36,671 bases of DNA, taken from the UHGV virus genome UHGV-0271399; one strand, given 5' to 3'. A model generated the notes under the pieces. That model did no database searches, was not told where the DNA came from, and saw only the letters and a program-made list of their open reading frames with translations. The stretch is from a virus. The first letter of the stretch is position 1. Every line of letters starts with the position of its first letter. Shown here piece by piece: positions 18,017 to 35,427 of this stretch. The translations under genes and the position numbers were made by a program.

Positions 18017-18790
18017 TCAGGCGGGATAAGATTGGGAGGTGGGGAAAACGATTTCTTTATAACAGCGACAATTCGGGAACTCGCCAGCGTGACCGGTCAT
18101 GCCGTCAAGCGTTGGAGGTTTGCCCCATTCGACAAATTTACCTTCCATTTCCCGATGAGAATGCCTGACGTCACCATCTTCGGCTGTACGCCAGATATAA
18201 CCATTCGAACCAATTGACAGCGCACGCGCCTGATCCAGCGCGCCGGTTGCACGTCCAAGTTCAGTACGGGCAATCAGGTCAGCTCTGGACTTTGCTATAT
18301 CACCCGATGCGGCTATTTCTTTAGCAAAATGTTCTGCTCTCCCACCGGTCACAACAGCTTCTATCGCCCGATTCTGGATGTCGTACACCCTGTCAGCCGC
18401 CTCGAGGGGGAGCGATTTGATGTACTTGACCTGTTCGGCGATGATGGATTGCATCACCTGGCCCACAGGAGCGCTTTCCACAAGATTGCGGAGCTCGCGA
18501 CTGATGTTCTTGCTGTGTTGCCGCCAAACTTTCTCGTTCTGCCGGGTTAGGTCCGCAGTAAAGTTTTCCGCGACCTTTGTCGCCCAGGGGGTGATGATTT
18601 CACTGTAGCGTTCCAGCGCCTCAATAATTTCCGTGATACTGTCATTTGAACCATCGTAGCGACCATTTACGATGTCTCCGACCGCCCGCGCTATCCTGCG
18701 TAGGCTGGTTCGATAGCGGATTTCCGCCTGACGGTTCCTGCGGTTCGTCATCAGGTTCGCCGATGCCGGGCGGCGCTTCATCTTCGGCAT
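18017..18790 (-). CDS. Head morphogenesis protein (Mu F-like minor head protein)
   Basis: 257 aa with conserved C-terminal HREMEGK...NCRC motif; start uncertain (overlaps portal 3' end; alternative ATG at 18751). Confidence 0.65.
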   Translation of the reverse strand: MPKMKRRPASANLMTNRRNRQAEIRYRTSLRRIARAVGDIVNGRYDGSNDSITEIIEALERYSEIITPWATKVAENFTADLTRQNEKVWRQHSKNISRELRNLVESAPVGQVMQSIIAEQVKYIKSLPLEAADRVYDIQNRAIEAVVTGGRAEHFAKEIAASGDIAKSRADLIARTELGRATGALDQARALSIGSNGYIWRTAEDGDVRHSHREMEGKFVEWGKPPTLDGMTGHAGEFPNCRCYKEIVFPTSQSYPA

Positions 18791-20108
18791 TCTCGATGTC
18801 CTCGTCGGTAATGGATGCCCCGATGCCGGTTACGTCAGAATTTTCGCGCAAATCAGTCATAGCGGCTTTCAGTGTCATCAGACCATCACCCAGCGCCGTA
18901 CTGATTGCGTTGGTAGTGTTTAACGCCACCGTTGAGCGATCGACATCAGACATTTGCCAGAGCGGGTTAAACTCAAACGTGAAATCGTCCGGCAGCGGCT
19001 TGCCAAGCTCCGAACGATGCATGATGTCCAGTATCCGCCGCACCGGAAGACGTAAACGCCTCTCCTGTAACGAGCTTACCCGGTCGTAATAGTTGGCAAG
19101 GTCTGCATCACCGGTAGAAAATCCTTTCGGGGACTGTCCGAACAACCTCACCAGTGGGATACCAACAGCGCCACTAATCTGTTCTGCAAACTGCGAAAGG
19201 ATGTCATCCAGACCACTGAAGCTGTACTGATGGGTTTCAAACTTATCCCGCGAGTCCATGAGCGTCATGCCTTCATTACTCTGGAACTGTCGAATCAGGT
19301 CGATATTCTTCAGCAACGCTTCATACGCAGGACCACCAAGTGCGATAAGCTCACGTAGCTTCTCCACGCTGTAGGTACGCAGATGCGCCTTGTAGACCAG
19401 CTGCGCCGCGCCGACAGTAGCGCTGTCGAACGCGGTAAGACGATCCCAGATACGCTCTACAACCGACATTCCCCATTCGTTCTCGGTCATCTTCTGCTGA
19501 AATGGCAGCGTGACGCCATCAAAGCGAATCAGGCGGCTGTGATGGATGCGCCAGGCCGGGATGCCCGTTGCAGTGGTCACCACGTCGTAAAACTCAGGTT
19601 TACCCAGGTCCGGCCCCATCTCTTTAATGCGGCGGGTCAGCACCGGGTTAATCATCCAGCGGTCGAGCGGGAGAATGCCCTTAAACTTGCCTTCTCCAAT
19701 GGTTTCGAGCCGCAACGGGGTCATTGGTGCCTGCCCCTCAATCATGATGAAGCCAACCGCGCCGCCGTAGAGACGCGACCATTTCAGCACGTCGTTCAGC
19801 GCATCCCAGATCTGCAACTCATCCAGCTGCGCTTCCAGGGTGCCACGGTCTTTGGCGTCAATCTCCGAAGTGATGCGAATGCCTTTCCGGGTCATATCGT
19901 CCGGGATAGCGTCGACCGCTTCGCCGATGATCCAGGACGAACGATAGGACCATTCCACCAGCATGCGGTTGCGGCTGGTGAAGTTAGCCCGGTAGGTCGA
20001 TGCTGAGTGCTGGTTAGGCGTCTGCATCCCCACGCGGGCGACAAAGTTCTCATAGCCATCAGCGGTGGCCTGTGCCGTTCGCTGAGAGGCTTGCTTGTTT
20101 CGTGCCAT
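18642..20108 (-). CDS. Portal protein
   Basis: 488 aa directly downstream of terminase large subunit (ATGA overlap); acidic C-terminus. Confidence 0.65.
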   Translation of the reverse strand: MARNKQASQRTAQATADGYENFVARVGMQTPNQHSASTYRANFTSRNRMLVEWSYRSSWIIGEAVDAIPDDMTRKGIRITSEIDAKDRGTLEAQLDELQIWDALNDVLKWSRLYGGAVGFIMIEGQAPMTPLRLETIGEGKFKGILPLDRWMINPVLTRRIKEMGPDLGKPEFYDVVTTATGIPAWRIHHSRLIRFDGVTLPFQQKMTENEWGMSVVERIWDRLTAFDSATVGAAQLVYKAHLRTYSVEKLRELIALGGPAYEALLKNIDLIRQFQSNEGMTLMDSRDKFETHQYSFSGLDDILSQFAEQISGAVGIPLVRLFGQSPKGFSTGDADLANYYDRVSSLQERRLRLPVRRILDIMHRSELGKPLPDDFTFEFNPLWQMSDVDRSTVALNTTNAISTALGDGLMTLKAAMTDLRENSDVTGIGASITDEDIENAEDEAPPGIGEPDDEPQEPSGGNPLSNQPTQDSAGGRRHRKWSLRWFK

Positions 20109-21730
20109 CAGGCCTGTCTCCCTAGCAGCTCCCAGATGTTCAGGGCTGAATTCATTGGCGCGTAGCTGATCATCACCGAGTCGGCGAGGTTCGGCGACTT
20201 GGTGCCGTCAGGCTGTTTATCAACAACGATTTTCCCCACGCCGTTAATGGAGTAGGTCGGCTGCGACAGCTCGATGATGAGTTTGTCTTTGCTCGCCATG
20301 GCGCTGCTGATTGAGATGATTTCGTCCGGGTTGTAGGCCATGCCCTCAACCACGGCACGGTAGGTGTTCTGGAAAAGTTTACGTAACCGCCACCAGCTCT
20401 GGGCTTTGGCGTTAGCGAAGAAGTCCTTGTTCAGACGTGCGGCTTGCCCGTTGTCCCCGCGAACAGCTTCATCATCCGGATCAAATACCGCGCCACTACC
20501 TCGAAACGGTGTGGCGAGTATTGACGGTCGGCGCGCAGCGTTACGCAGTTCGTTGATAGCGCGTGCATCGCCGCGAACGCCAGCGCCCAGCCCGTCCTCA
20601 TCAAAGCGAAACTCTTCGAGGTTGTCCTGTTCGCAAAAACCGAAGACCTTCTCGACGGACTGATAAATGTCGCTGCCCACACCAGACCATTCCCGCACAT
20701 TTTCCAGGAGGAAGCCATGACGGGTGGAAAAGGCATTTTTGTCCCTGCCTTCATCAGCGACATCCATCGCGCCAAGTCGTTTGCCTGTTGGCTGGATACC
20801 CAGTTTGATATGCGCATCAACGGCAGCCTGTACCCATTCGGATGGAATCAGGACGCCTTCCGCTGATGCGCTGTAGTTCAGATCAAGTTCCTGTGCCACC
20901 ACCACCGGATTATCGATTTTCTCGCATTCCCTGCGATACCACTCTTCATCCTTGCGAGGATCATCCCGCCAGTGGAATGTGAATACCGGTATCTTCCCGC
21001 CATGACGCTTCTGAGCGAACGGGTTAGCCATGCCGTTAACTGAACTCAGGTCGATACGGCAACGCGTCGTTTGTGACAACGCCGCATCAATCAGCAGAGG
21101 ACGCTGAAGGAATGCAGCCTCATCAACCAGATAAAGCGTGGTACGGTCACCACGACCAATATTATCGCCAGCCTCGCCTTTGATAACGGCACCAGTTTCA
21201 GGAAACTCAACACGCATATATGGCGCGTGCTTCTTCTCGCTCCACGAACCGCGAAACTCTACAGGTAGTGTTTCCACGAACTTGCGCGCCTTCCAGAACA
21301 ATGCTTTCGGGTCACCGGTGCTATCGACGTATTCCTCTTTACGGGAGCCGAAACCGATAACCATTTCTTTGTTGAAGAGACAAAGCGAGCAGGCCAGTCC
21401 GATCGCGGTCCAACTGAGCCCCATTTCACGGGATTTTTCGGTAATACCATTCTCCCGATTGCCCCAGCGTTCCATAATCCAGTGGATCCACTCCTCCTGC
21501 TTAGGGAAGAGTAAAAACGGAATGGTCACCGGCAGGCCATAATCAATATTACGCGGGTCCGTTGTCATGCCCCAGTCGATGATGAACTGAGCCGGATTGG
21601 TTCGGTAAAACTGTTTTAGTGCAGGCAATATTTCAGGATTCTGGCGAATGCGCTGTAGGCGTTCCATCCGCCATTCAAAAACCATCTGGTAATCAGGATG
21701 TTTAAAATCGAAGGGGAATGGTAACGGCAT
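20108..21730 (-). CDS. Terminase large subunit
   Basis: 540 aa; position after terminase small subunit; ATPase/nuclease-size protein. Confidence 0.8.
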
Positions 21731-21732
21731 AC

Positions 21733-22284
21733 TTAGCCCATCATTTTTCTATACGCCTCTGCAGCCTGCTCCGGCGTTAAGTTGGTAATTTCTGTTCTGA
21801 CTGGTCCTCCATCAGCGCCAGTCACTTCATTTTTGACGTTGTCTTTAAACGCCTGAACAGAAACATGGCGCCCAAGTAACTCAAGGTTTTTAACCTTATC
21901 AGGCCATTTGATTTTCTTCAGAAGTGCGGCGCTATCTGCGGATACCATCTCCACGACATCCATTCCTGATAGCGTTGTGCGCCATACCTTAGGCCAGTCT
22001 TTAATGGGTTTTAGCTCACCGTTTTGCAGGAGAATGTCGAGCACATCCATCTGGTCGATTTCAAGAAGGCGATTAAGTACATATTCTGCATTAATACCAA
22101 CAAGATCATTGCGTTGCGCTTTCAGTTCGGCGATTCTTAACTTGATGTCAGGTTTTGACAAGTTTTCGGATGCGGTACGGTTAGCTGTCTTTGCGCTGTA
22201 CCCCGCCCGAATAGCCGCTTGCGTGGCGTTTAAATCGATGAGGTACTCGTGACAGAACATTTCTTGCTTGTCAGTAAGTGCCAT
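21733..22284 (-). CDS. Terminase small subunit
   Basis: 183 aa; N-terminal [31 protein letters not shown] motif typical of TerS. Confidence 0.8.
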
Positions 22285-22305
22285 GTTTTATCTCTGGAGA
22301 TTTTC

Positions 22306-22551
22306 GTGAGAAAATTAATCGTATTTGTATCTTTTTGTTCGGCTTTAGGCTTTGGCTATCAAGCCATAACCAGTCAAACATTATCCACAGCGCTAGCAGC
22401 ATTAGCGAGTTTGGTCGTTTTTCTAACAGCCTTAGCAAATCTAAAAAGCAACAAAGCTAAAGAGCAAGGTGTTAGCCAAACAATCGGCGATAACTCTAGC
22501 GGTATACAAATTGGTGGCAACATAACTATTAATGAAAGGGACAAAGAATGA
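22306..22551 (+). CDS. Small membrane protein (unknown; first gene of AT-rich cassette)
   Basis: about 81 aa from GTG 22306 with GGAGA RBS 5 nt upstream; two hydrophobic helices; stop overlaps next ATG (ATGA); no in-frame ATG, so start uncertain. Confidence 0.45.
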   Translation: MRKLIVFVSFCSALGFGYQAITSQTLSTALAALASLVVFLTALANLKSNKAKEQGVSQTIGDNSSGIQIGGNITINERDKE

Positions 22552-23453
22552 GCTTATTCGAGAAATCCGGTCAAAGTGTGGGTGATAACTCCTCAGCTAT
22601 ACAAGTTACAGGTGATGCCTACTTTGGCAACACCACTACTGAGGTCATGGCTATTTGCCAGTTAATGGTCAAAAGTGAAATGGCTTCGCTTCGTGAAGAT
22701 GCATTCGCTTTAGTCGACTCACGGGCTCAAGAATTTGGTCACCAAATTGCAGAAAAACTATCTAAAGATGTTGATGAAAAACTAAGAGCAAAACTCGCTG
22801 ATCCCGATATTCAGTACACCCTCAATCAAGCAGTCGTTCAGGTCGCAAGAAAGGGGTTTGATGCAAAATCAGAACTTCTTAAGGAGTTAATAGTTACTAA
22901 AATTGAAAACGATCAAGAAGACCAAAGCATTTTGATCGATCAAGCGTTAGATACAACATCCAGACTGACCACTAATGATATTAAGTTTTTGGCATTTGTA
23001 TATTTTTTACGTTCAATCAATAAGATGATAGGAAGTATAAATATCACAGAACTTGCAGAGAAAAAAAGTACTCATTTTTCACTACCTAACATTTCCTTGG
23101 AAGAAAATTACATGATCCATAGGTCAATGTATGCTGTTTATGAAACAGATTATATAAAATTTCTTGGAGAACATTTCACCCTCAAACGCCTAAATCAGCA
23201 GCTATTAGAAATTAAAGGCGTATTTTTCTCAGATAAAATATATAATATCAATTACTTAGAGTTATTATCAAAAAGAACGGGTTATGACACTCTTACATCT
23301 GATGCATCATTTTATGAAGCATTCCCAGCTACAAAATTAGTTCTCGACTCTTTTGGTATTTCAACCCTTACAGAACTTGACTCACTAGTCATCAATCCAG
23401 TAGGTATAATTATTGCGGAAAATTATCTCAAAGCTCATGGATATATCAGTTAA
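22548..23453 (+). CDS. Hypothetical 301-aa protein (unknown; candidate accessory/defence gene)
   Basis: long uninterrupted ORF, AT-rich, coherent codon usage, AGGG RBS; no recognisable phage structural or regulatory motif. Confidence 0.7.
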   Translation: MSLFEKSGQSVGDNSSAIQVTGDAYFGNTTTEVMAICQLMVKSEMASLREDAFALVDSRAQEFGHQIAEKLSKDVDEKLRAKLADPDIQYTLNQAVVQVARKGFDAKSELLKELIVTKIENDQEDQSILIDQALDTTSRLTTNDIKFLAFVYFLRSINKMIGSINITELAEKKSTHFSLPNISLEENYMIHRSMYAVYETDYIKFLGEHFTLKRLNQQLLEIKGVFFSDKIYNINYLELLSKRTGYDTLTSDASFYEAFPATKLVLDSFGISTLTELDSLVINPVGIIIAENYLKAHGYIS

Positions 23454-23631
23454 TACTCAGCATATGTAAAAAGGCTCATGGATGCCAGTTGCCAGAGTCG
23501 GGAAAGATAATTGGCGGACATTACCTAGGCTCGCCATCGTTAGCCATAGGTTACTCCGTCGTTTGCTCTGTCTGTCCTGCCGCTACTGGCGTGAACTGCA
23601 CGCGCTTCGCATCACCAGGAGCAAAGTACAG

Positions 23632-23757
23632 CTACTCGCCTGTCTCGGTCGCCAGCGGCACAAAGCCATTAACCAGCTCATGCTGACGTCGTGACATCTT
23701 GCCAGTGAAGGTTTCGCCTGTTTGGGTGGTTAGCGTGATTTGGTAGATGTCGGACAT
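23632..23757 (-). CDS. Small ORF (41 aa) ending at an in-frame TAG; possible disrupted small gene
   Basis: ATG 23757 with AAGGT RBS; reading frame stays open for 27 more codons after the TAG. Confidence 0.2.
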   Translation of the reverse strand: MSDIYQITLTTQTGETFTGKMSRRQHELVNGFVPLATETGE

Positions 23758-23810: not shown

Positions 23811-24071
23811 ATGTCTTCGTTCAACCAAACAAGCCTACGATCATCCAACAGCCCGCTTCGCATAGAAACAACTGATAAAGAACATGCCATTGCCCATGAG
23901 GCAATTTTGGTTGCCTTATTGACTAACGTTGCAAGGTCTGCGCACAGCAATCAGGCGCTGATTGAATTAGAAGAAACAGTTAAAGGTTTGATTAGCAATT
24001 CCAACCCTAATAGCTTTCGGATCGCTTCAGATCTCATTAATGAAGCAAAAGAGAATTTCAACAGGGGTTGA
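23811..24071 (+). CDS. Hypothetical 86-aa protein
   Basis: strong AGGAGG RBS just upstream of ATG 23811; convergent with rha. Confidence 0.5.
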   Translation: MSSFNQTSLRSSNSPLRIETTDKEHAIAHEAILVALLTNVARSAHSNQALIELEETVKGLISNSNPNSFRIASDLINEAKENFNRG

Positions 24072-24137: not shown

Positions 24138-24662
24138 TCAGCCAATCAGCAATTCTGGCTGCGTCACCTGCATGATGTGCTCATGCTCGAGCTCAAGAAC
24201 GCGCTTCTCTTTCTTCCGCTCATTCATCAACCGGCTACCGATCGTTCCCTTCAACTTTGAGCGCGTTTCTTTGATGGCGTAGCGGTGCTGCATTTCTTCA
24301 CCCATGGCCAGGCGACGGCTAAGTTGCTCAGACATCCAGTTGAACGCTGAAATGTAGCTTTCTTTGATAGCCGCAGCAGCTTTCCCGGTGAATCCCATAA
24401 CAACCATGATCCAGCCATCTTTCGTCAGGCTATACATCGGGCGAACCTTACCCTGCTCATCGATATAATCAGCCGACGCAAAATTGCGTTGGCTAAACTC
24501 TCTTGAGCAATCGGCCTTAACCTGCTCGATTTTCCTGAGCACATCACCGTGTCGCTTTCCGAAGTACGTAGCAACTTTTCTGGATGTGGTAACGACCTCT
24601 CCGTTTTTAGCTTGCACCATTTCTCGGAAGTCAAAGGCCGGAATAACTGACGGATTATTCAT
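24138..24662 (-). CDS. rha: Rha family phage regulatory protein
   Basis: 174 aa from ATG 24662 (AAGG RBS); N-terminal SRKVATYFGKRHGDVLRKIEQ motif characteristic of Rha; upstream track extension looks non-coding. Confidence 0.7.
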   Translation of the reverse strand: MNNPSVIPAFDFREMVQAKNGEVVTTSRKVATYFGKRHGDVLRKIEQVKADCSREFSQRNFASADYIDEQGKVRPMYSLTKDGWIMVVMGFTGKAAAAIKESYISAFNWMSEQLSRRLAMGEEMQHRYAIKETRSKLKGTIGSRLMNERKKEKRVLELEHEHIMQVTQPELLIG

Positions 24663-25005
24663 AGCGTCTTTACCTTTTAGAAAGTGAGCCTGTCTCACAG
24701 AAAAGCCGCCCGAGAGAGGTCGCCACCTATAACGGCATTTCTCAGGCTCGCTTACTGAAAGGCTCTCGTTAATATGCGCGTGAGATGCGCGGTGAAATTC
24801 AGATGTAAAAAAGCCCCGCGAATGCGAGGCAAAATCCTGGTATTTGTAATGACTGGCTCTTATTTCAACGCAGCCCCTTACCGTGCGCAAGATGCTCAAT
24901 ATCAAGCATCAGCAATGAGATGTTTAATCTGGATTCACTCCAAAAGTGATCACCATCCTGTCTACAGAGCCAAATGTGAAGGATGATGAGTAAAAATTAT
25001 CGCTA

Positions 25006-25473
25006 TCATCGAAGGCATTGTGTCCTGATATATTCCTGAAGCGTTCTCAGTGCTGTTTGGTCGCTGATGATTCCGTCCCGGATACCGAGAACGTTTCGTC
25101 CAGCAACTGGAGAGAGTTCGACGGAGGCATCATTGCCCATGCCGGAGGCGCTGGAGGTTTCGGCTGAGGATGGCACAGGGCATTTTCCTTTGACGAGCAC
25201 CCTACCACCATTATCAAGCTTGCGCCGAAGAGCATCATTTTCAGCTTTCGCATCAGCTAACTCCTTCGTGTATTTAGCATCGAGTGCATCAGCAGTACGC
25301 TGGCGCTGCTGCATGTCAGTAATGGTGGCAGTCGCCTGCTTCAGCTCACTGACTTTTTTATCGCGCTGCTCTTTGTAGGTCATGGCGTTATCACGGTAAT
25401 GATTAACAGCCCATGACAGGCAGACGATGATGCAGATAACCAGAGCGGAGATAATCGCGGTTACTCTGCTCAT
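25006..25473 (-). CDS. Rz: Rz i-spanin
   Basis: 155 aa, N-terminal TM anchor, coiled-coil; follows endolysin; contains embedded Rz1. Confidence 0.85.
25047..25253 (-). CDS. Rz1: Rz1 o-spanin lipoprotein (embedded in Rz, +1 frame)
   Basis: lipobox MVVGCSS then Pro-rich segment [11 protein letters not shown]; fully inside Rz. Confidence 0.75.
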
Positions 25474-25946
25474 ACCTCAATCTCTCTGACCGTTCCGCCT
25501 GCTTCTTTGAATTTTGCAATCAGGCTGTCAGCCTTATGCTCGAACTGACCATAACCAGCCCCCGGAAGTGAAGCCCAGATATTACTGCAACGGTCGATTG
25601 CCTGACGGATATCACCGCGATCAATCATAGGTAAAGCGCCACGCTCCTTAATCTGCTGCAGTGCAACAGCGTCCTGGCTTTTCGGAGAGAAGTCTTTCAG
25701 GCCAAGCTGCTTGCGATAGGCATCCCACCAACGGGAAAGAAGTTGGTAACGTCCGGCGGCTGTTGATTTGAGTTTTGGGTTTAGCGTGACAAGTTTGCGA
25801 GGGTGATCGGAGTAATCAGTGAATAGCTCTCCGCCAACAATGACGTCATAACCATGATTTCTGGTTTTCTGTCGTCCATTATCAGTTCCCTCTGACCACG
25901 CCAGCATATCGAGGAACGCCTTACGTTGATTATTGATTTCCACCAT
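25470..25946 (-). CDS. R: Endolysin (lambda R-type lytic transglycosylase)
   Basis: 158 aa, near-identical to lambda R ([26 protein letters not shown]...). Confidence 0.9.
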
Positions 25947-26253
25947 CTTCTACTCCGGCTTTTTTAGCAGCGAAGCGTTTGATAAGCGAACCTATCGAGT
26001 CAGTACCGATGTAGCCGATGAACACGCTCGTTATATAAGCGAGATTGCTACTTAGTCCGGCGAAGTCGAGAAGGTCACGAATGAACCAGGCGATAATGGC
26101 GCACATCGTTGCGTCGATTACTGTTTTTGTAAACGCACCGCCATTATATCTGCCGCGAAGGTACGCCATTGCAAACGCAAGGATTGCCCCGATGCCTTGT
26201 TCCTTTGCCGCGAGAATGGTGGCTAACAGGTCATGTTTTTCTGGCATCTTCAT
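25930..26253 (-). CDS. S: Holin (lambda S, dual-start motif MKM)
   Basis: 107 aa, near-identical to lambda S107. Confidence 0.9.
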
Positions 26254-30482: not shown

Positions 30483-31180
30483 AGACTTGCTCCTTTCAGT
30501 CCGAACTTAGCTTTAATTTCTGCGATCTTCGCCAGCGCCTGAACACGATTTAGAGGCCTGCCGCCCATGACAGGAAGTTGTTTTACTGGTTCAGGTATCG
30601 TCTCACCACGGTTAATTCGCGCTGTCATACAGGTCAGTTCATCGGCAGCCTTGCGTCGTAATTCCGCGTCAGTCAGCGCATTGGCCCGCATGTTCTGGTA
30701 CAGGTTGGTAACCAGCCAGTAGTGCGCGTTCGATTTCCACGGATAAGACTCTGCATCCGGATACAGGCCACGCTTCCGGCAATACTCGTAAACCATATCA
30801 ACCAGCTCGCTGACGTTTGGCAGTCCGGCGATAACGGATGCTTCTTCCCGGCACCATGCAACAAACTGCCCAGGTGATGGCAGAAATGGTCGATTCTGCC
30901 GACGGGCTACGCGCATTCCTGCGTTAACCTGTTCCATTGTGGTGATCCCGTTTTCCCGGAAAGCCAGAACCCACTGGCGGCGGATTTCGTTCAGTTCGTT
31001 CTGGTCACGGTTAGCCAGGCTCGCCGGGAAAGTTGCCAGTAACTGGCTGAACACACCGTTGATGATCTGCGCTACCTGCTGTACCTGCGGCTTTTCGTCG
31101 TACTGTTCCGGCATGTTGTTGGCGATCCGACGCATCTGCTCACGGTCAAAGTTAACCATCTGTGCGGCGATGTTTTTCAT
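30479..31180 (-). CDS. P: Replication protein P (helicase loader)
   Basis: 233 aa near-identical to lambda P. Confidence 0.9.
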   Translation of the reverse strand: MKNIAAQMVNFDREQMRRIANNMPEQYDEKPQVQQVAQIINGVFSQLLATFPASLANRDQNELNEIRRQWVLAFRENGITTMEQVNAGMRVARRQNRPFLPSPGQFVAWCREEASVIAGLPNVSELVDMVYEYCRKRGLYPDAESYPWKSNAHYWLVTNLYQNMRANALTDAELRRKAADELTCMTARINRGETIPEPVKQLPVMGGRPLNRVQALAKIAEIKAKFGLKGASL

Positions 31181-32076
31181 AGATCCACCCCGTAAATCCA
31201 GTCTGTGTTTGTCAGGTCGAGTTTTGGTTTGCTAGCTGTCACGCCTGCCTGTTGCTTGTTACGGTTGATTTCGAGCTGGGTCCACTTGTCGCGGAGTTTA
31301 GCCGGACTCAGCACGTTACCGGACCAGAAGTTGTCCTGGCATGCCCAGCGGAACAGCACGCACATGTCGCGGTGGTTACGTCCATCACGTTCACGCATCA
31401 GGCGGATATCGTTAGCCCACCCTGCAAAATTCGGTTTTCTGGCTGATGGCGCGATGGTCTTCACCATGTCAAACATCCACTCTGCGGCGGTCAGGTCTTC
31501 TGCTGTCCCCCACTTGCTGCCGCTCTGAATTGCAGCATCCGGTTTCACCACAGAAAGATCGTTTTCTGGCTGGTCAGAGGATTCGCCAGAATTCTCTGAC
31601 GAATAATCTTTTCTTTTTTCTTTTGTATTAGTGTCTTTTGTGTCCCCCTGTTTTGAGGGATAGCAATCCCCCAATTTGAGGGATGTTTTATCCCTCGTTT
31701 TAGGGGATTTTCCCTCGTTTTGAGGGATGCACCATTCTGAGATGTTTTTATTTGGTCCAAACATGCCGCATTGTTGCTTGATAATATTCATTCTGACGAG
31801 TTCTAACTTGGCTTCATTGCACCGTTTGACGGGTAACTTTGTAATCTCGCTAAGTTGAGAATCGGTGATTCTGTCCATTGGTTTATTCCACCCATAGGTT
31901 TTACGCAGAATGGCAAGCAGCACTTTAAACTGTCGCTTGGTCAGATCTGCGCCTGAATAAGCCTCAAGCAGCATATTTGATAGTCTGGCGTAACCATCAT
32001 CGAGATCTGCCACATTACGCTCCTGTTTGGCAAAGTTACCTCTGCAGAAGTTGAGTATTTTTGCTGTATTTGTCAT
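31177..32076 (-). CDS. O: Replication initiator O
   Basis: 299 aa near-identical to lambda O; contains ori iterons. Confidence 0.9.
   Translation of the reverse strand: MTNTAKILNFCRGNFAKQERNVADLDDGYARLSNMLLEAYSGADLTKRQFKVLLAILRKTYGWNKPMDRITDSQLSEITKLPVKRCNEAKLELVRMNIIKQQCGMFGPNKNISEWCIPQNEGKSPKTRDKTSLKLGDCYPSKQGDTKDTNTKEKRKDYSSENSGESSDQPENDLSVVKPDAAIQSGSKWGTAEDLTAAEWMFDMVKTIAPSARKPNFAGWANDIRLMRERDGRNHRDMCVLFRWACQDNFWSGNVLSPAKLRDKWTQLEINRNKQQAGVTASKPKLDLTNTDWIYGVDL
31636..31730. other. ori-lambda: four iterons plus adjacent AT-rich region, inside O
   Basis: repeats of TCCCTCAAAACGAGGGA-type ~18-bp units at 31636-31730, A/T-rich tract at about 31600-31635. Confidence 0.8.
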
Positions 32077-34225: not shown

Positions 34226-34549
34226 ATGGATGCACAAACACGCCGCCGCGAACGTCGCGCAGAGAAACAGGCTCAATGGAAAGCAGCAAATCCCCTGTTG
34301 GTTGGGGTAAGCACAAAACCAGTTAACCGCCCTATTCTCTCGCTGAATCGCAAACCGAAATCACGAGTAGAAAGCGCACTAAATCCGATAGACCTTACAG
34401 TGCTGGCTGAATACCACGAACAGATTGAAAGCAACCTGCAACGTATTGAGCGCAAGAATCATCGAGTTTGGTATAGCAAGCCAGGTGAGTTCGGTATAAC
34501 TTGTCAAGGAAGACAAAAGGTTAAAGGGAAATCCATTCCATTGGCATGA
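34226..34549 (+). CDS. N: Antiterminator N
   Basis: 107 aa from ATG 34226 (AGGAGA RBS), near-identical to lambda N (MDAQTRRRERRAEKQAQWKAANPLL...). Confidence 0.9.
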   Translation: MDAQTRRRERRAEKQAQWKAANPLLVGVSTKPVNRPILSLNRKPKSRVESALNPIDLTVLAEYHEQIESNLQRIERKNHRVWYSKPGEFGITCQGRQKVKGKSIPLA

Positions 34550-34557
34550 GGTACGTA

Positions 34558-35427
34558 ATGAAGAAGATTGATTACAAGTCCATACCAAAACCAATAGACT
34601 CAGCATCAGAGCGAAAAAAACACAAAAAAGAGGCTGAAAAATTAGTAAATTATATCAGTTTTATTAGAAACAATGCTCACGGCGATGGCGACAAGAAGTT
34701 GCTTTCAGATGCTCGGACCCAAGCGTTCGGTATACTTCGTAAGCAGATGCAATATCGTCTTCATCCAGGCTACATAATTGAAATTCGCCCTACTGAAAGA
34801 CAATTGTTCTTATTAAACTCTGTCTTTGACTTTGTAAACGTAGTTGGAGATCTTATCGACAGATCTGTAGATAAGGATCCTGATACAAATAGTTTTCTTC
34901 TAACAAATAAAGAATACTTATATGGTAAATTCGGTATAAACGGATGGCAAAAATATGTACGCTTCTTACGTGCATTCGTTGATGCGTATAAAAATTCCGA
35001 CATGATTTATACATATTTGCCTGGTGGTGATAATTGTACGCTTTCGGCAGACAATAGAATATTCATACCTGTACTTGGTCTTGGGCTGATTAATGCAGTA
35101 AATGAAAGAGATGTTATAATTGTTAAGCAGTGGCGAAAATATGAGGGATATAGATATCTGCCATGCTTTGATATATTAAAAATACAGAATAAATTCTATG
35201 TAAAAATTAAATATAAAGAAGATATTTTCTTCCTCAGAAAAAACAAAGATCTTTTACAAGAACTTTCTGGTACAATAGATGTCATCTTAGGTTCTAGGTT
35301 TATAAAAGAACTGAAAGAAAGCAGGTCTTTCTCTCGTGTAGAGATAAGCGAGTCAGAGTTATGGGGTATATCAAATAATCCTGTAAACCACGCTCACCAA
35401 CGAAACCCAAACAAAAAGTGGTCATAA
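34558..35427 (+). CDS. Hypothetical ~289-aa protein in pL operon (unknown; candidate exclusion/defence gene)
   Basis: ATG 34558 with GAGG RBS (alternative ATG 34546 overlapping N stop); AT-rich; Lys/Tyr/Asn-rich; occupies the ral/sieB position between N and ea10. Confidence 0.7.
   Translation: MKKIDYKSIPKPIDSASERKKHKKEAEKLVNYISFIRNNAHGDGDKKLLSDARTQAFGILRKQMQYRLHPGYIIEIRPTERQLFLLNSVFDFVNVVGDLIDRSVDKDPDTNSFLLTNKEYLYGKFGINGWQKYVRFLRAFVDAYKNSDMIYTYLPGGDNCTLSADNRIFIPVLGLGLINAVNERDVIIVKQWRKYEGYRYLPCFDILKIQNKFYVKIKYKEDIFFLRKNKDLLQELSGTIDVILGSRFIKELKESRSFSRVEISESELWGISNNPVNHAHQRNPNKKWS

Follow-up and report, generated by a model that had tools for sequence, protein, structure and literature searches.

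The window analysed here, the whole 36,671-nucleotide (nt) viral genome UHGV-0271399, is a lambdoid prophage of Escherichia coli, and it carries on its plus strand a cassette of two adjacent genes that face a late operon read from the minus strand. The first gene (22306-22551) encodes a small membrane protein of 81 amino acids (aa), which we propose as an effector, and the second (22548-23453) encodes a 301-aa protein of the LPO_1073/Vpar_1526 family, which we propose as its sensor; the two products together comprise 382 residues. The main new result is that the motif QTIGDNSSGIQIGGNITIN, which ends the small protein (Q58-N76; 22477-22533, plus strand), recurs as QSVGDNSSAIQVTGDAYFGN at the start of the large protein (Q9-N28; 22572-22631, plus strand).

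The initial annotation of this DNA had described the two genes as lying on the plus strand against the late operon, as overlapping by an ATGA and as richer in AT than their surroundings, and all of this is borne out. The positions of the open reading frames (ORFs) confirm the orientation, the stop/start overlap is seen at 22548-22551, and the GC contents of the small gene (0.386) and of codons 1-155 and 156-301 of the large gene (0.394 and 0.313, respectively) are lower than those of the whole window (0.487) and of terL, the gene of the large terminase subunit (0.535). The position 22249, from which the small gene had been counted, had to be corrected. Translation most likely begins at the GTG at 22306, as judged from the 81-aa form annotated by the Prokaryotic Genome Annotation Pipeline (PGAP; WP_001228633) and from the Serratia and Providencia homologues, which have an ATG at the equivalent codon; a start at 22249 would extend 36 nt into terS, the gene of the small terminase subunit. 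Six nucleotides before the GTG, a Shine-Dalgarno-like GGAG (22296-22299, plus strand) can be read from the sequence, and this GGAG is also kept in the Klebsiella and Pantoea copies; an identical 4-nt ATGA overlap joins the two genes in the copies from Klebsiella, Providencia and IMG/VR. Both genes are under purifying selection, with ratios of nonsynonymous to synonymous substitution rates (dN/dS) of 0.09-0.52 depending on the part (0.36-0.52 for the small gene). Because dN/dS is below 1 in every part and the pair is conserved across genera, both genes are real.

Local alignment of the two motifs of the window gives a score of 52, versus 29.3+-4.7 for shuffled sequences, and 8 of 5000 shuffles reach 52. 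The motif is found family-wide, the consensus of 91 large-protein N-termini being QKVGDGSTAIQAGGDVTI. A hidden Markov model (HMM) built from these 91 N-termini alone picks out, in every unfused locus, the tail at the C-terminus of the small ORF upstream with 16-34 bits (21.8 bits for the tail of the small protein of the window); of the 4560 six-frame ORF fragments searched it matches no others, the best of these reaching 6.3 bits. The same layout, in which the small protein ends and the large one begins with the motif, was present in 20/20 unfused loci examined, from Enterobacterales to Bacteroidales; these comprise 19 loci tabulated together and an E. coli P2-like plasmid, on which a distant motif pair is found. 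Among the sources of these loci are Klebsiella, Enterobacter, Pantoea, Serratia and Providencia, and also metagenomic lineages. In a Bacteroidales metagenome-assembled genome (MAG) the partner is a 60-aa protein with one transmembrane (TM) segment, and in three further lineages the motif partners have 68, 85 and 92 aa. The motif is rich in G, N and Q, with alternating hydrophobic residues and an (I/V)Q(I/V/A)G core, as in known cross-beta signalling motifs. In AlphaFold2 (AF2) models, both motif-bearing tails are disordered beside domains with a predicted local distance difference test score (pLDDT) of about 90, a predicted disorder that matches known amyloid-signalling motifs.

The small protein was modelled as a helical hairpin (model m1be08f293c80; residues 2-23 and 26-55, encoded at 22309-22470 on the plus strand) with a pLDDT of about 90, and its hydropathy peaks agree with two hydrophobic segments. 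A lysine-rich stretch follows, and the tail (residues 56-81) is disordered, with a pLDDT of about 50. The basic linker KSNKAKE after the second TM segment would, by the positive-inside rule, place this tail in the cytoplasm. Across Enterobacterales the small protein is 56-93% identical, and it remains about 90% conserved where the C-terminal domain (C-domain) of the large protein is only 29% identical. Its sole Pfam matches are sub-threshold ones to unrelated membrane families; NCBIfam and PADLOC gave none, its profile found no sequence relative in the Protein Data Bank (PDB), and it is a plain two-helix hydrophobic hairpin with no domain of the Bell, HeLo or Babybell type. The best holin match, phrog_565, is not significant (E-value = 0.059). 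A role of the small protein in the lysis cassette was considered and rejected: its gene runs in the opposite direction to the lysis genes, the lysis cassette has a lambda-family holin of its own, and the pair is found in contexts unconnected with lysis.

The 301-aa protein passes the NCBIfam model NF045477 (LPO_1073/Vpar_1526) with 98.3 bits (E-value = 5.5e-28; residues 27-295), the curated cut-off being 45 bits, and PGAP gives the identical E. coli protein the same family name. Pfam family PF28206 is precomputed for this protein and for all of its close homologues. Both families are catalogued without an assigned function, so that the initial annotation, which saw no assignable motif in either protein, holds good as to function; the family membership and the shared motif had escaped it. 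An exhaustive phmmer search with the large protein yielded 722 cluster representatives at E-value <= 1e-3 (clusters at 50% identity), spread over several phyla; a genome scan for family loci with a narrow alignment found two. In PHROGs the large protein matches only a family of unknown function, in the local Pfam copy it matches nothing, and the family profile found no sequence relative in the PDB, where the protein also lacks a relative by fold. In Veillonella parvula, Vpar_1526 itself, which gave the family its name, was recovered with whole cells, with the outer membrane and in the surface-exposed fraction, its localisation being unpredictable (PMC5491611); such fractionation could reflect membrane association or insolubility.

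The AF2 model of the large protein, based on 124 homologues, has a pLDDT of 89 and a predicted template modelling score (pTM) of 0.80, and is all-alpha except for residues 1-28, which contain the motif and have a pLDDT of 48-64. The remainder falls into two parts of very different history. The conserved helical N-terminal domain (N-domain; residues 29-155, 22632-23012, plus strand) is the part over which most distant relatives match; it is 80% identical to the Klebsiella protein P0039, with a mean pairwise identity of 0.63 and a dN/dS of 0.09-0.18, and residues 1-155 as a whole are 80-93% identical within Enterobacterales. The C-domain (residues 156-301; 23013-23450, plus strand), which is hypervariable and the most AT-rich part of the cassette, is 29% identical to P0039 with a mean pairwise identity of 0.35. 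Its synonymous divergence (dS) is 3-6 times that of the N-domain and its dN/dS is 0.33, and because of these two values we regard it as exchanged by recombination; positive selection on the C-domain was likewise considered and is ruled out by a dN/dS of 0.33 and a raised dS, which denote recombination mosaicism. Swapping of this kind is expected of a specificity domain, and to judge from its divergence the C-domain probably binds the trigger of the system.

Several relatives unite the parts of the cassette in a single chain. In P0156, one TM segment, one copy of the motif and the domain follow each other, and the TM segment (EWVFSGVG) matches those of the one-TM partners at loci L014 and L034. 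In P0120, P0164, P0204, P0207 and P0199, an N-terminal HNH nuclease is followed by a motif-like G/N/Q stretch and then by the domain; the fused HNH part matches the PADLOC models of CBASS endonuclease effectors, SAVED-HNH, SduA and PDC-M68A (E-value = 1e-18 to 1e-29). One of the HNH-fused members (L017 1321-2778) lies directly after an integrase gene. Since both TM and HNH fusions occur, the Vpar_1526 domain appears to be the constant, regulatory part of the system, and the N-terminal or upstream element an exchangeable toxic effector. At another locus (L032 2757-4778; GCA_000225995.2), a single two-TM partner precedes a tandem of two Vpar_1526 paralogues, both with an N-terminal motif of their own, which suggests that one effector is served by two sensors.

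The core of the small-protein motif, NSSGIQIGGNITI, has the tetrad (I/V)-Q-(I/V/L)-G of RHIM (RIP homotypic interaction motif), with N-x-(S/T)-G before it and Asn and apolar residues after it; in the large protein (NSSAIQVTGDAYF) the tetrad is degenerate. The reference RHIM sequences are TIYNSTGIQIGA and NIYNCSGVQVGD (PMC9918910), and NSSGIQIGGN of the window stands beside NSTGIQIGA of RIPK1 and NCSGVQVGD of RIPK3 (PMC9918910, PMC4262963). When the motif profile was compared with 177,635 PDB sequences, the top two matches were RIPK1 RHIM peptides (E-value = 0.28 and 0.76), and motif segments hit only two Pfam families, namely RHIM (2 of 22 segments; best E-value = 0.059) and EAD10 (1 of 22). 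Neither full-length protein of the window gave a RHIM match in Pfam. Homology is here indistinguishable from convergence on a cross-beta-compatible pattern, and at the level of sequence the likeness to RHIM is a resemblance, not membership.

Adjacent genes of which one encodes an effector with a C-terminal motif and the other a sensor with the same motif at its N-terminus form the diagnostic layout of amyloid-signalling pairs, and for this reason we tentatively read the cassette as such a pair. HET-S/NWD2 is a fungal pair of this kind. Among bacteria, the closest counterpart is Bab/Agp, an abortive-infection (Abi) system in a prophage hotspot of E. coli ECOR25, in which infection makes Agp convert the motif of Bab to amyloid, whereupon Bab damages the membrane (bioRxiv 10.1101/2024.11.07.622273). 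Like the present cassette, Bab/Agp (BASS11) is an adjacent pair in an E. coli prophage hotspot, with a larger next-gene protein that starts with the C-terminal motif of the small one, and both small proteins (109 aa in Bab versus 81 aa here) have an N-terminal hydrophobic, membrane-targeting part. However, the present effector is a TM hairpin of two helices for which no relation to Bell or Babybell was detected, and its motif differs from the reported BASS11 and looks RHIM-like. Pairs of Bell effectors and NLR receptors with the motifs BASS1-10, including the RHIM-like BASS3, have been described in filamentous bacteria (bioRxiv 10.1101/2020.01.06.895854). These and HET-S/NWD2 share with the cassette the effector C-terminal and receptor N-terminal motifs on neighbouring genes and the coexistence of fused and split forms, and the motif identity within pairs (33-67% over 18 residues here) is comparable with the 43-56% of tested BASS pairs (bioRxiv 10.1101/2020.01.06.895854). 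These systems differ in having STAND NTPase receptors of the NB-ARC or NACHT type with repeats, and Bell or HeLo effectors, whereas the family described here has no NTPase; moreover, the Bell/NLR pairs are reported only in multicellular bacteria, whereas this family occurs in unicellular Enterobacterales and in other phyla. A review of August 2026 lists only the amyloid-signalling systems of filamentous bacteria. Amyloid-signalling Abi pairs as such are already known; under our interpretation, what would be new here is the sensor family, the minimal TM-hairpin effector, the RHIM-like motif and a wide occurrence in unicellular bacteria.

The pair travels as a unit, both into different prophages and outside prophages. 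In prophages with unrelated terminases (Terminase_2; Terminase_4 with HNH) it occupies the junction between lysis and terminase genes, reading against the late genes, and elsewhere it is found beside tail genes, a portal gene and integrases. The Serratia copy lies outside a prophage, by an IS3 element near proBA/crl. Family members are also associated with defence loci. Downstream of the copy in the Bacteroidales MAG lie genes for two DNA methyltransferases and one restriction enzyme (type II restriction-modification, R-M), and at another locus the cassette adjoins an HNH restriction-type gene. On the E. coli P2-like plasmid (NZ_CP148400.1, 55-kb), the pair is inserted between the portal gene and Hp1-Hp2-Hp3, a complete 3HP system (L039 181-2931; PADLOC E-value = 1e-156 to 1e-247) that thus adjoins this distant copy of the cassette; the portal-side site is known in P2-like phages as the gpA-gpQ defence hotspot (PMC9122126). 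In addition, 17 of 124 relatives match PDC-S47 (PDLC05026; best E-value = 1.3e-6), a candidate defence model of PADLOC-DB that covers part of the family of the large protein; PDC-S47 is a single-gene candidate and the protein of the window does not match it. Neither the entry for PDC-S47 nor those for the LPO_1073/Vpar_1526 family record the small partner or the shared motif. In the searchable literature we found no paper naming LPO_1073, PDC-S47, PF28206 or the RefSeq accessions, and none in which the small partner, the motif common to both proteins or any function of the family is described; Vpar_1526 appears only in an outer-membrane proteome list of V. parvula. The earlier proposal of a mobile exclusion or abortive-infection module is supported in part, as to its general class, by the conservation of the pair, its mobility, its defence neighbours, the HNH swaps and PDC-S47; the search of both window proteins against the defence models of PADLOC, which had been recommended with it, gave no match.

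The site of the cassette in the prophage can be defined rather precisely. It had been placed directly after the Rz gene, at the position of lambda bor, but three elements intervene (see below), and the cassette abuts the start of terS instead; on the flanking sequence, the closest described site is the pid moron locus of phage P22 rather than lambda bor. The left junction is the 5' end of terS (22203-22283), the insertion boundary of a moron hotspot. This stretch is 93.8% identical (megablast) to P22 40745-40825 and to BTP1, where it lies just upstream of pid. P22 and BTP1 keep there a relic of the terS 5' end in which the start codon is mutated (GCCAT -> GCCAC, plus strand; L002 636-716 in BTP1), and because this relic precedes pid, the terS start codon appears to be a recombination junction that joins different morons. 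The P22 pid locus (40357-40998) is a genuine, divergently transcribed moron, and related phages have at its position no insert or a different one (PMC3573128). It is like the cassette in its insertion site, in the flanking terS 5' sequence and in its divergence from the late genes, and unlike it in its cargo, an 86-aa regulator of the host dgo operon, so that only the site is common to the two (PMC3573128). The 5' end of terS is present in 203 of 5426 complete E. coli genomes, and the cassette in only 13. In two E. coli prophages that were inspected, other plus-strand cargo begins about 25 bp off the terS start: a 78-aa hypothetical protein in one, and YodC with DUF6953 in the other. As other prophages carry different cargo there, the terS start marks a cargo site defined by recombination.

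Further details of the prophage can be added. The segment 22150-23600 is 100% identical in the E. coli strains Rb-23, TUM14697 and 1002W03, and in the Rb-23 record the prophage is integrated beside torS. In the PGAP annotation of that record, the replication protein gene (about 31177-32056 of the window; L036 29028-29907) and the adjacent torS are frameshifted, and to judge from these calls the prophage may be replication-defective. All of the neighbouring late genes are on the minus strand. The divergent neighbour terS (21733-22284), which lies outside the module, is followed by terL (20108-21730) and the portal gene (18642-20108), and on the other side lie the lysis cassette, with the lambda-family holin (25930-26253), lysozyme (25470-25946) and Rz (25006-25473), and the gene for Rha (24138-24905). 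The Rha ORF has 255 aa when read from a TTG, and PGAP gives a 174-aa form (about 24138-24662); the some 80 upstream codons are probably untranslated. Between Rha and the cassette are an 86-aa plus-strand ORF (23811-24071; WP_000093956) that belongs to no family, and whose PADLOC match to MTase_II (E-value = 9e-4) is probably spurious, and a minus-strand pseudogene of phrog_6581 (23551-23757) with an internal stop. In other prophages, the cassette is not accompanied by either of them. A 289-aa hypothetical protein is encoded (about 34538-35407; L036 32389-33258) directly downstream of the N antiterminator gene, and the position downstream of N is a classical accessory-gene site of lambdoid phages.

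Taken together, we tentatively interpret the two genes as mobile prophage cargo of the abortive-infection type, in which a homotypic motif, RHIM-like and possibly amyloid, couples a sensor to an effector in the membrane; we put the chance that this is correct at a little less than even. The 301-aa protein would be a cytoplasmic sensor, whose variable C-domain would recognise a phage product. Once triggered, sensors would associate with one another, and their N-terminal motifs would pair homotypically with the tails of the small protein, most likely by cross-beta templating of the RHIM/BASS-like, amyloid type. The two-helix hairpins clustered in this way would permeabilise the inner membrane, and the infected cell would die before phage release. 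In the HNH-fused relatives, the same clustering would activate the nuclease.

A number of observations weigh against this interpretation. As to the motif, the likeness between cognate partners exceeds that between non-cognate ones only weakly: in a permutation test with 10 diverse pairs, p was 0.026 for BLOSUM scores and 0.085 for identities, and the cognate partner ranked first in 4 of the 10, a weak covariation that follows from the conservation of the motif throughout the family. In the single-chain fusions one motif copy is left, as a linker, so that the motif may serve for something other than templating in trans. The resemblance to RHIM spans only 8-10 residues and lies below every significance or curated threshold; thus the tail of the small protein matches Pfam RHIM (PF12721), its only Pfam match, with 12.4 bits and an E-value of 0.12, the cut-off being 20. 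The large protein, unlike NLR/TGP sensors, has no NTPase or known oligomerisation engine. As to defence, neither protein of the window matches any PADLOC model (the large protein gives no PDC-S47 match even at E-value <= 1), the gene is absent from 50,697 records of isolated phages by megablast and tblastn, and in the literature we found no experiment on any member of the family. As to expression, no sigma-70-like site was seen on the plus strand upstream of 22306 and no terminator after 23453. The DNA upstream of the cassette is not conserved between its contexts, so that no cassette-borne promoter can be defined, and because only 21 bp separate the terS ATG from the GTG at 22306, any promoter of the cassette must lie inside the 5' coding region of terS. 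Finally, pid of P22, which has the same site and orientation, is not expressed in lysogens (PMC3573128), and for this reason the orientation of the cassette does not by itself imply lysogenic expression.

Some of these observations would suit a different use of the motif in the same two-gene defence or conflict module, namely as a stoichiometric docking element: short beta-strands would pair and so hold the soluble protein to its membrane partner, and neither amyloid nor templated polymerisation would be involved. The single motif copy that serves as a linker in the single-chain relatives agrees with a connector of which a second copy arose as the gene was split, and both the sub-threshold similarity to RHIM and a sensor devoid of a known oligomerisation engine are compatible with simple docking. 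We nevertheless regard docking as unlikely, if far from negligible: the G/N/Q-rich composition with alternating hydrophobic residues and the (I/V)Q(I/V/A)G core are typical of cross-beta motifs, both tails are disordered in the monomer models, and the gene layout is that diagnostic of amyloid-signalling pairs.

Two further explanations dispense with a suicidal sensor-effector pair. A small inner-membrane protein of a prophage, encoded opposite to the late genes at a known site of accessory cargo, might also act in superinfection exclusion, blocking DNA entry or another membrane step of the phage without killing the cell, with the large protein as a regulator or chaperone. The HNH nuclease that takes the place of the membrane part in some relatives points instead to a toxic effector, the pair is found outside prophages beside R-M systems, and a hypervariable cytoplasmic domain suits intracellular sensing; exclusion is therefore improbable in our view. 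We give equally little credence to an addiction module of the toxin-antitoxin type, or to a part in the lysis or regulation of the phage itself, in which a holin-like small toxin would be restrained by the large protein, so that the element would be stabilised or lysis tuned, with no defence against other phages. The nearness of the lysis cassette, the weak match to phrog_565 (E-value = 0.059) and the IS3-associated Serratia copy outside a prophage would agree with it. On the other hand, that match is not significant, the cassette and the lysis genes are on opposite strands, the pair elsewhere stands beside tail, portal, R-M and integrase genes, and diversification of the C-domain would not be expected of a simple antitoxin.

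If the interpretation as a sensor coupled to a membrane effector is extended to the relatives, the LPO_1073/Vpar_1526 family and its small membrane partners may form a large class, so far unrecognised, of cell-death systems with RHIM-like amyloid signalling in unicellular bacteria and prophages, with a sensor of about 280 aa that lacks an NTPase, an executioner that is a TM hairpin of 60-90 aa, interchangeable TM and HNH effectors, and specificity domains swapped by recombination; this wider proposal is possible, though we think it more doubtful than the reading of the cassette itself. Two results are of use in their own right: a recombination-defined cargo site of lambdoid and P22-like phages has been pinned to the terS start codon, and a simple search rule for such pairs has emerged, which looks for a short motif that closes a small TM protein and also opens the product of the gene directly downstream. 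If the interpretation of the cassette is correct, a curated but functionless protein family would gain a testable role and a mechanism, and E. coli would have a second amyloid-type anti-phage switch, far smaller and more tractable than Bab/Agp. RHIM-like homotypic motifs would then connect sensors with killers across several phyla of unicellular bacteria, which would bear on the origin of signalling of the RHIM/necroptosis type. Under the wider proposal, prion-like signalling would extend well beyond NLR/Bell and Bab/Agp, and an IQIG core like that of RIPK1 would be present in an E. coli prophage.

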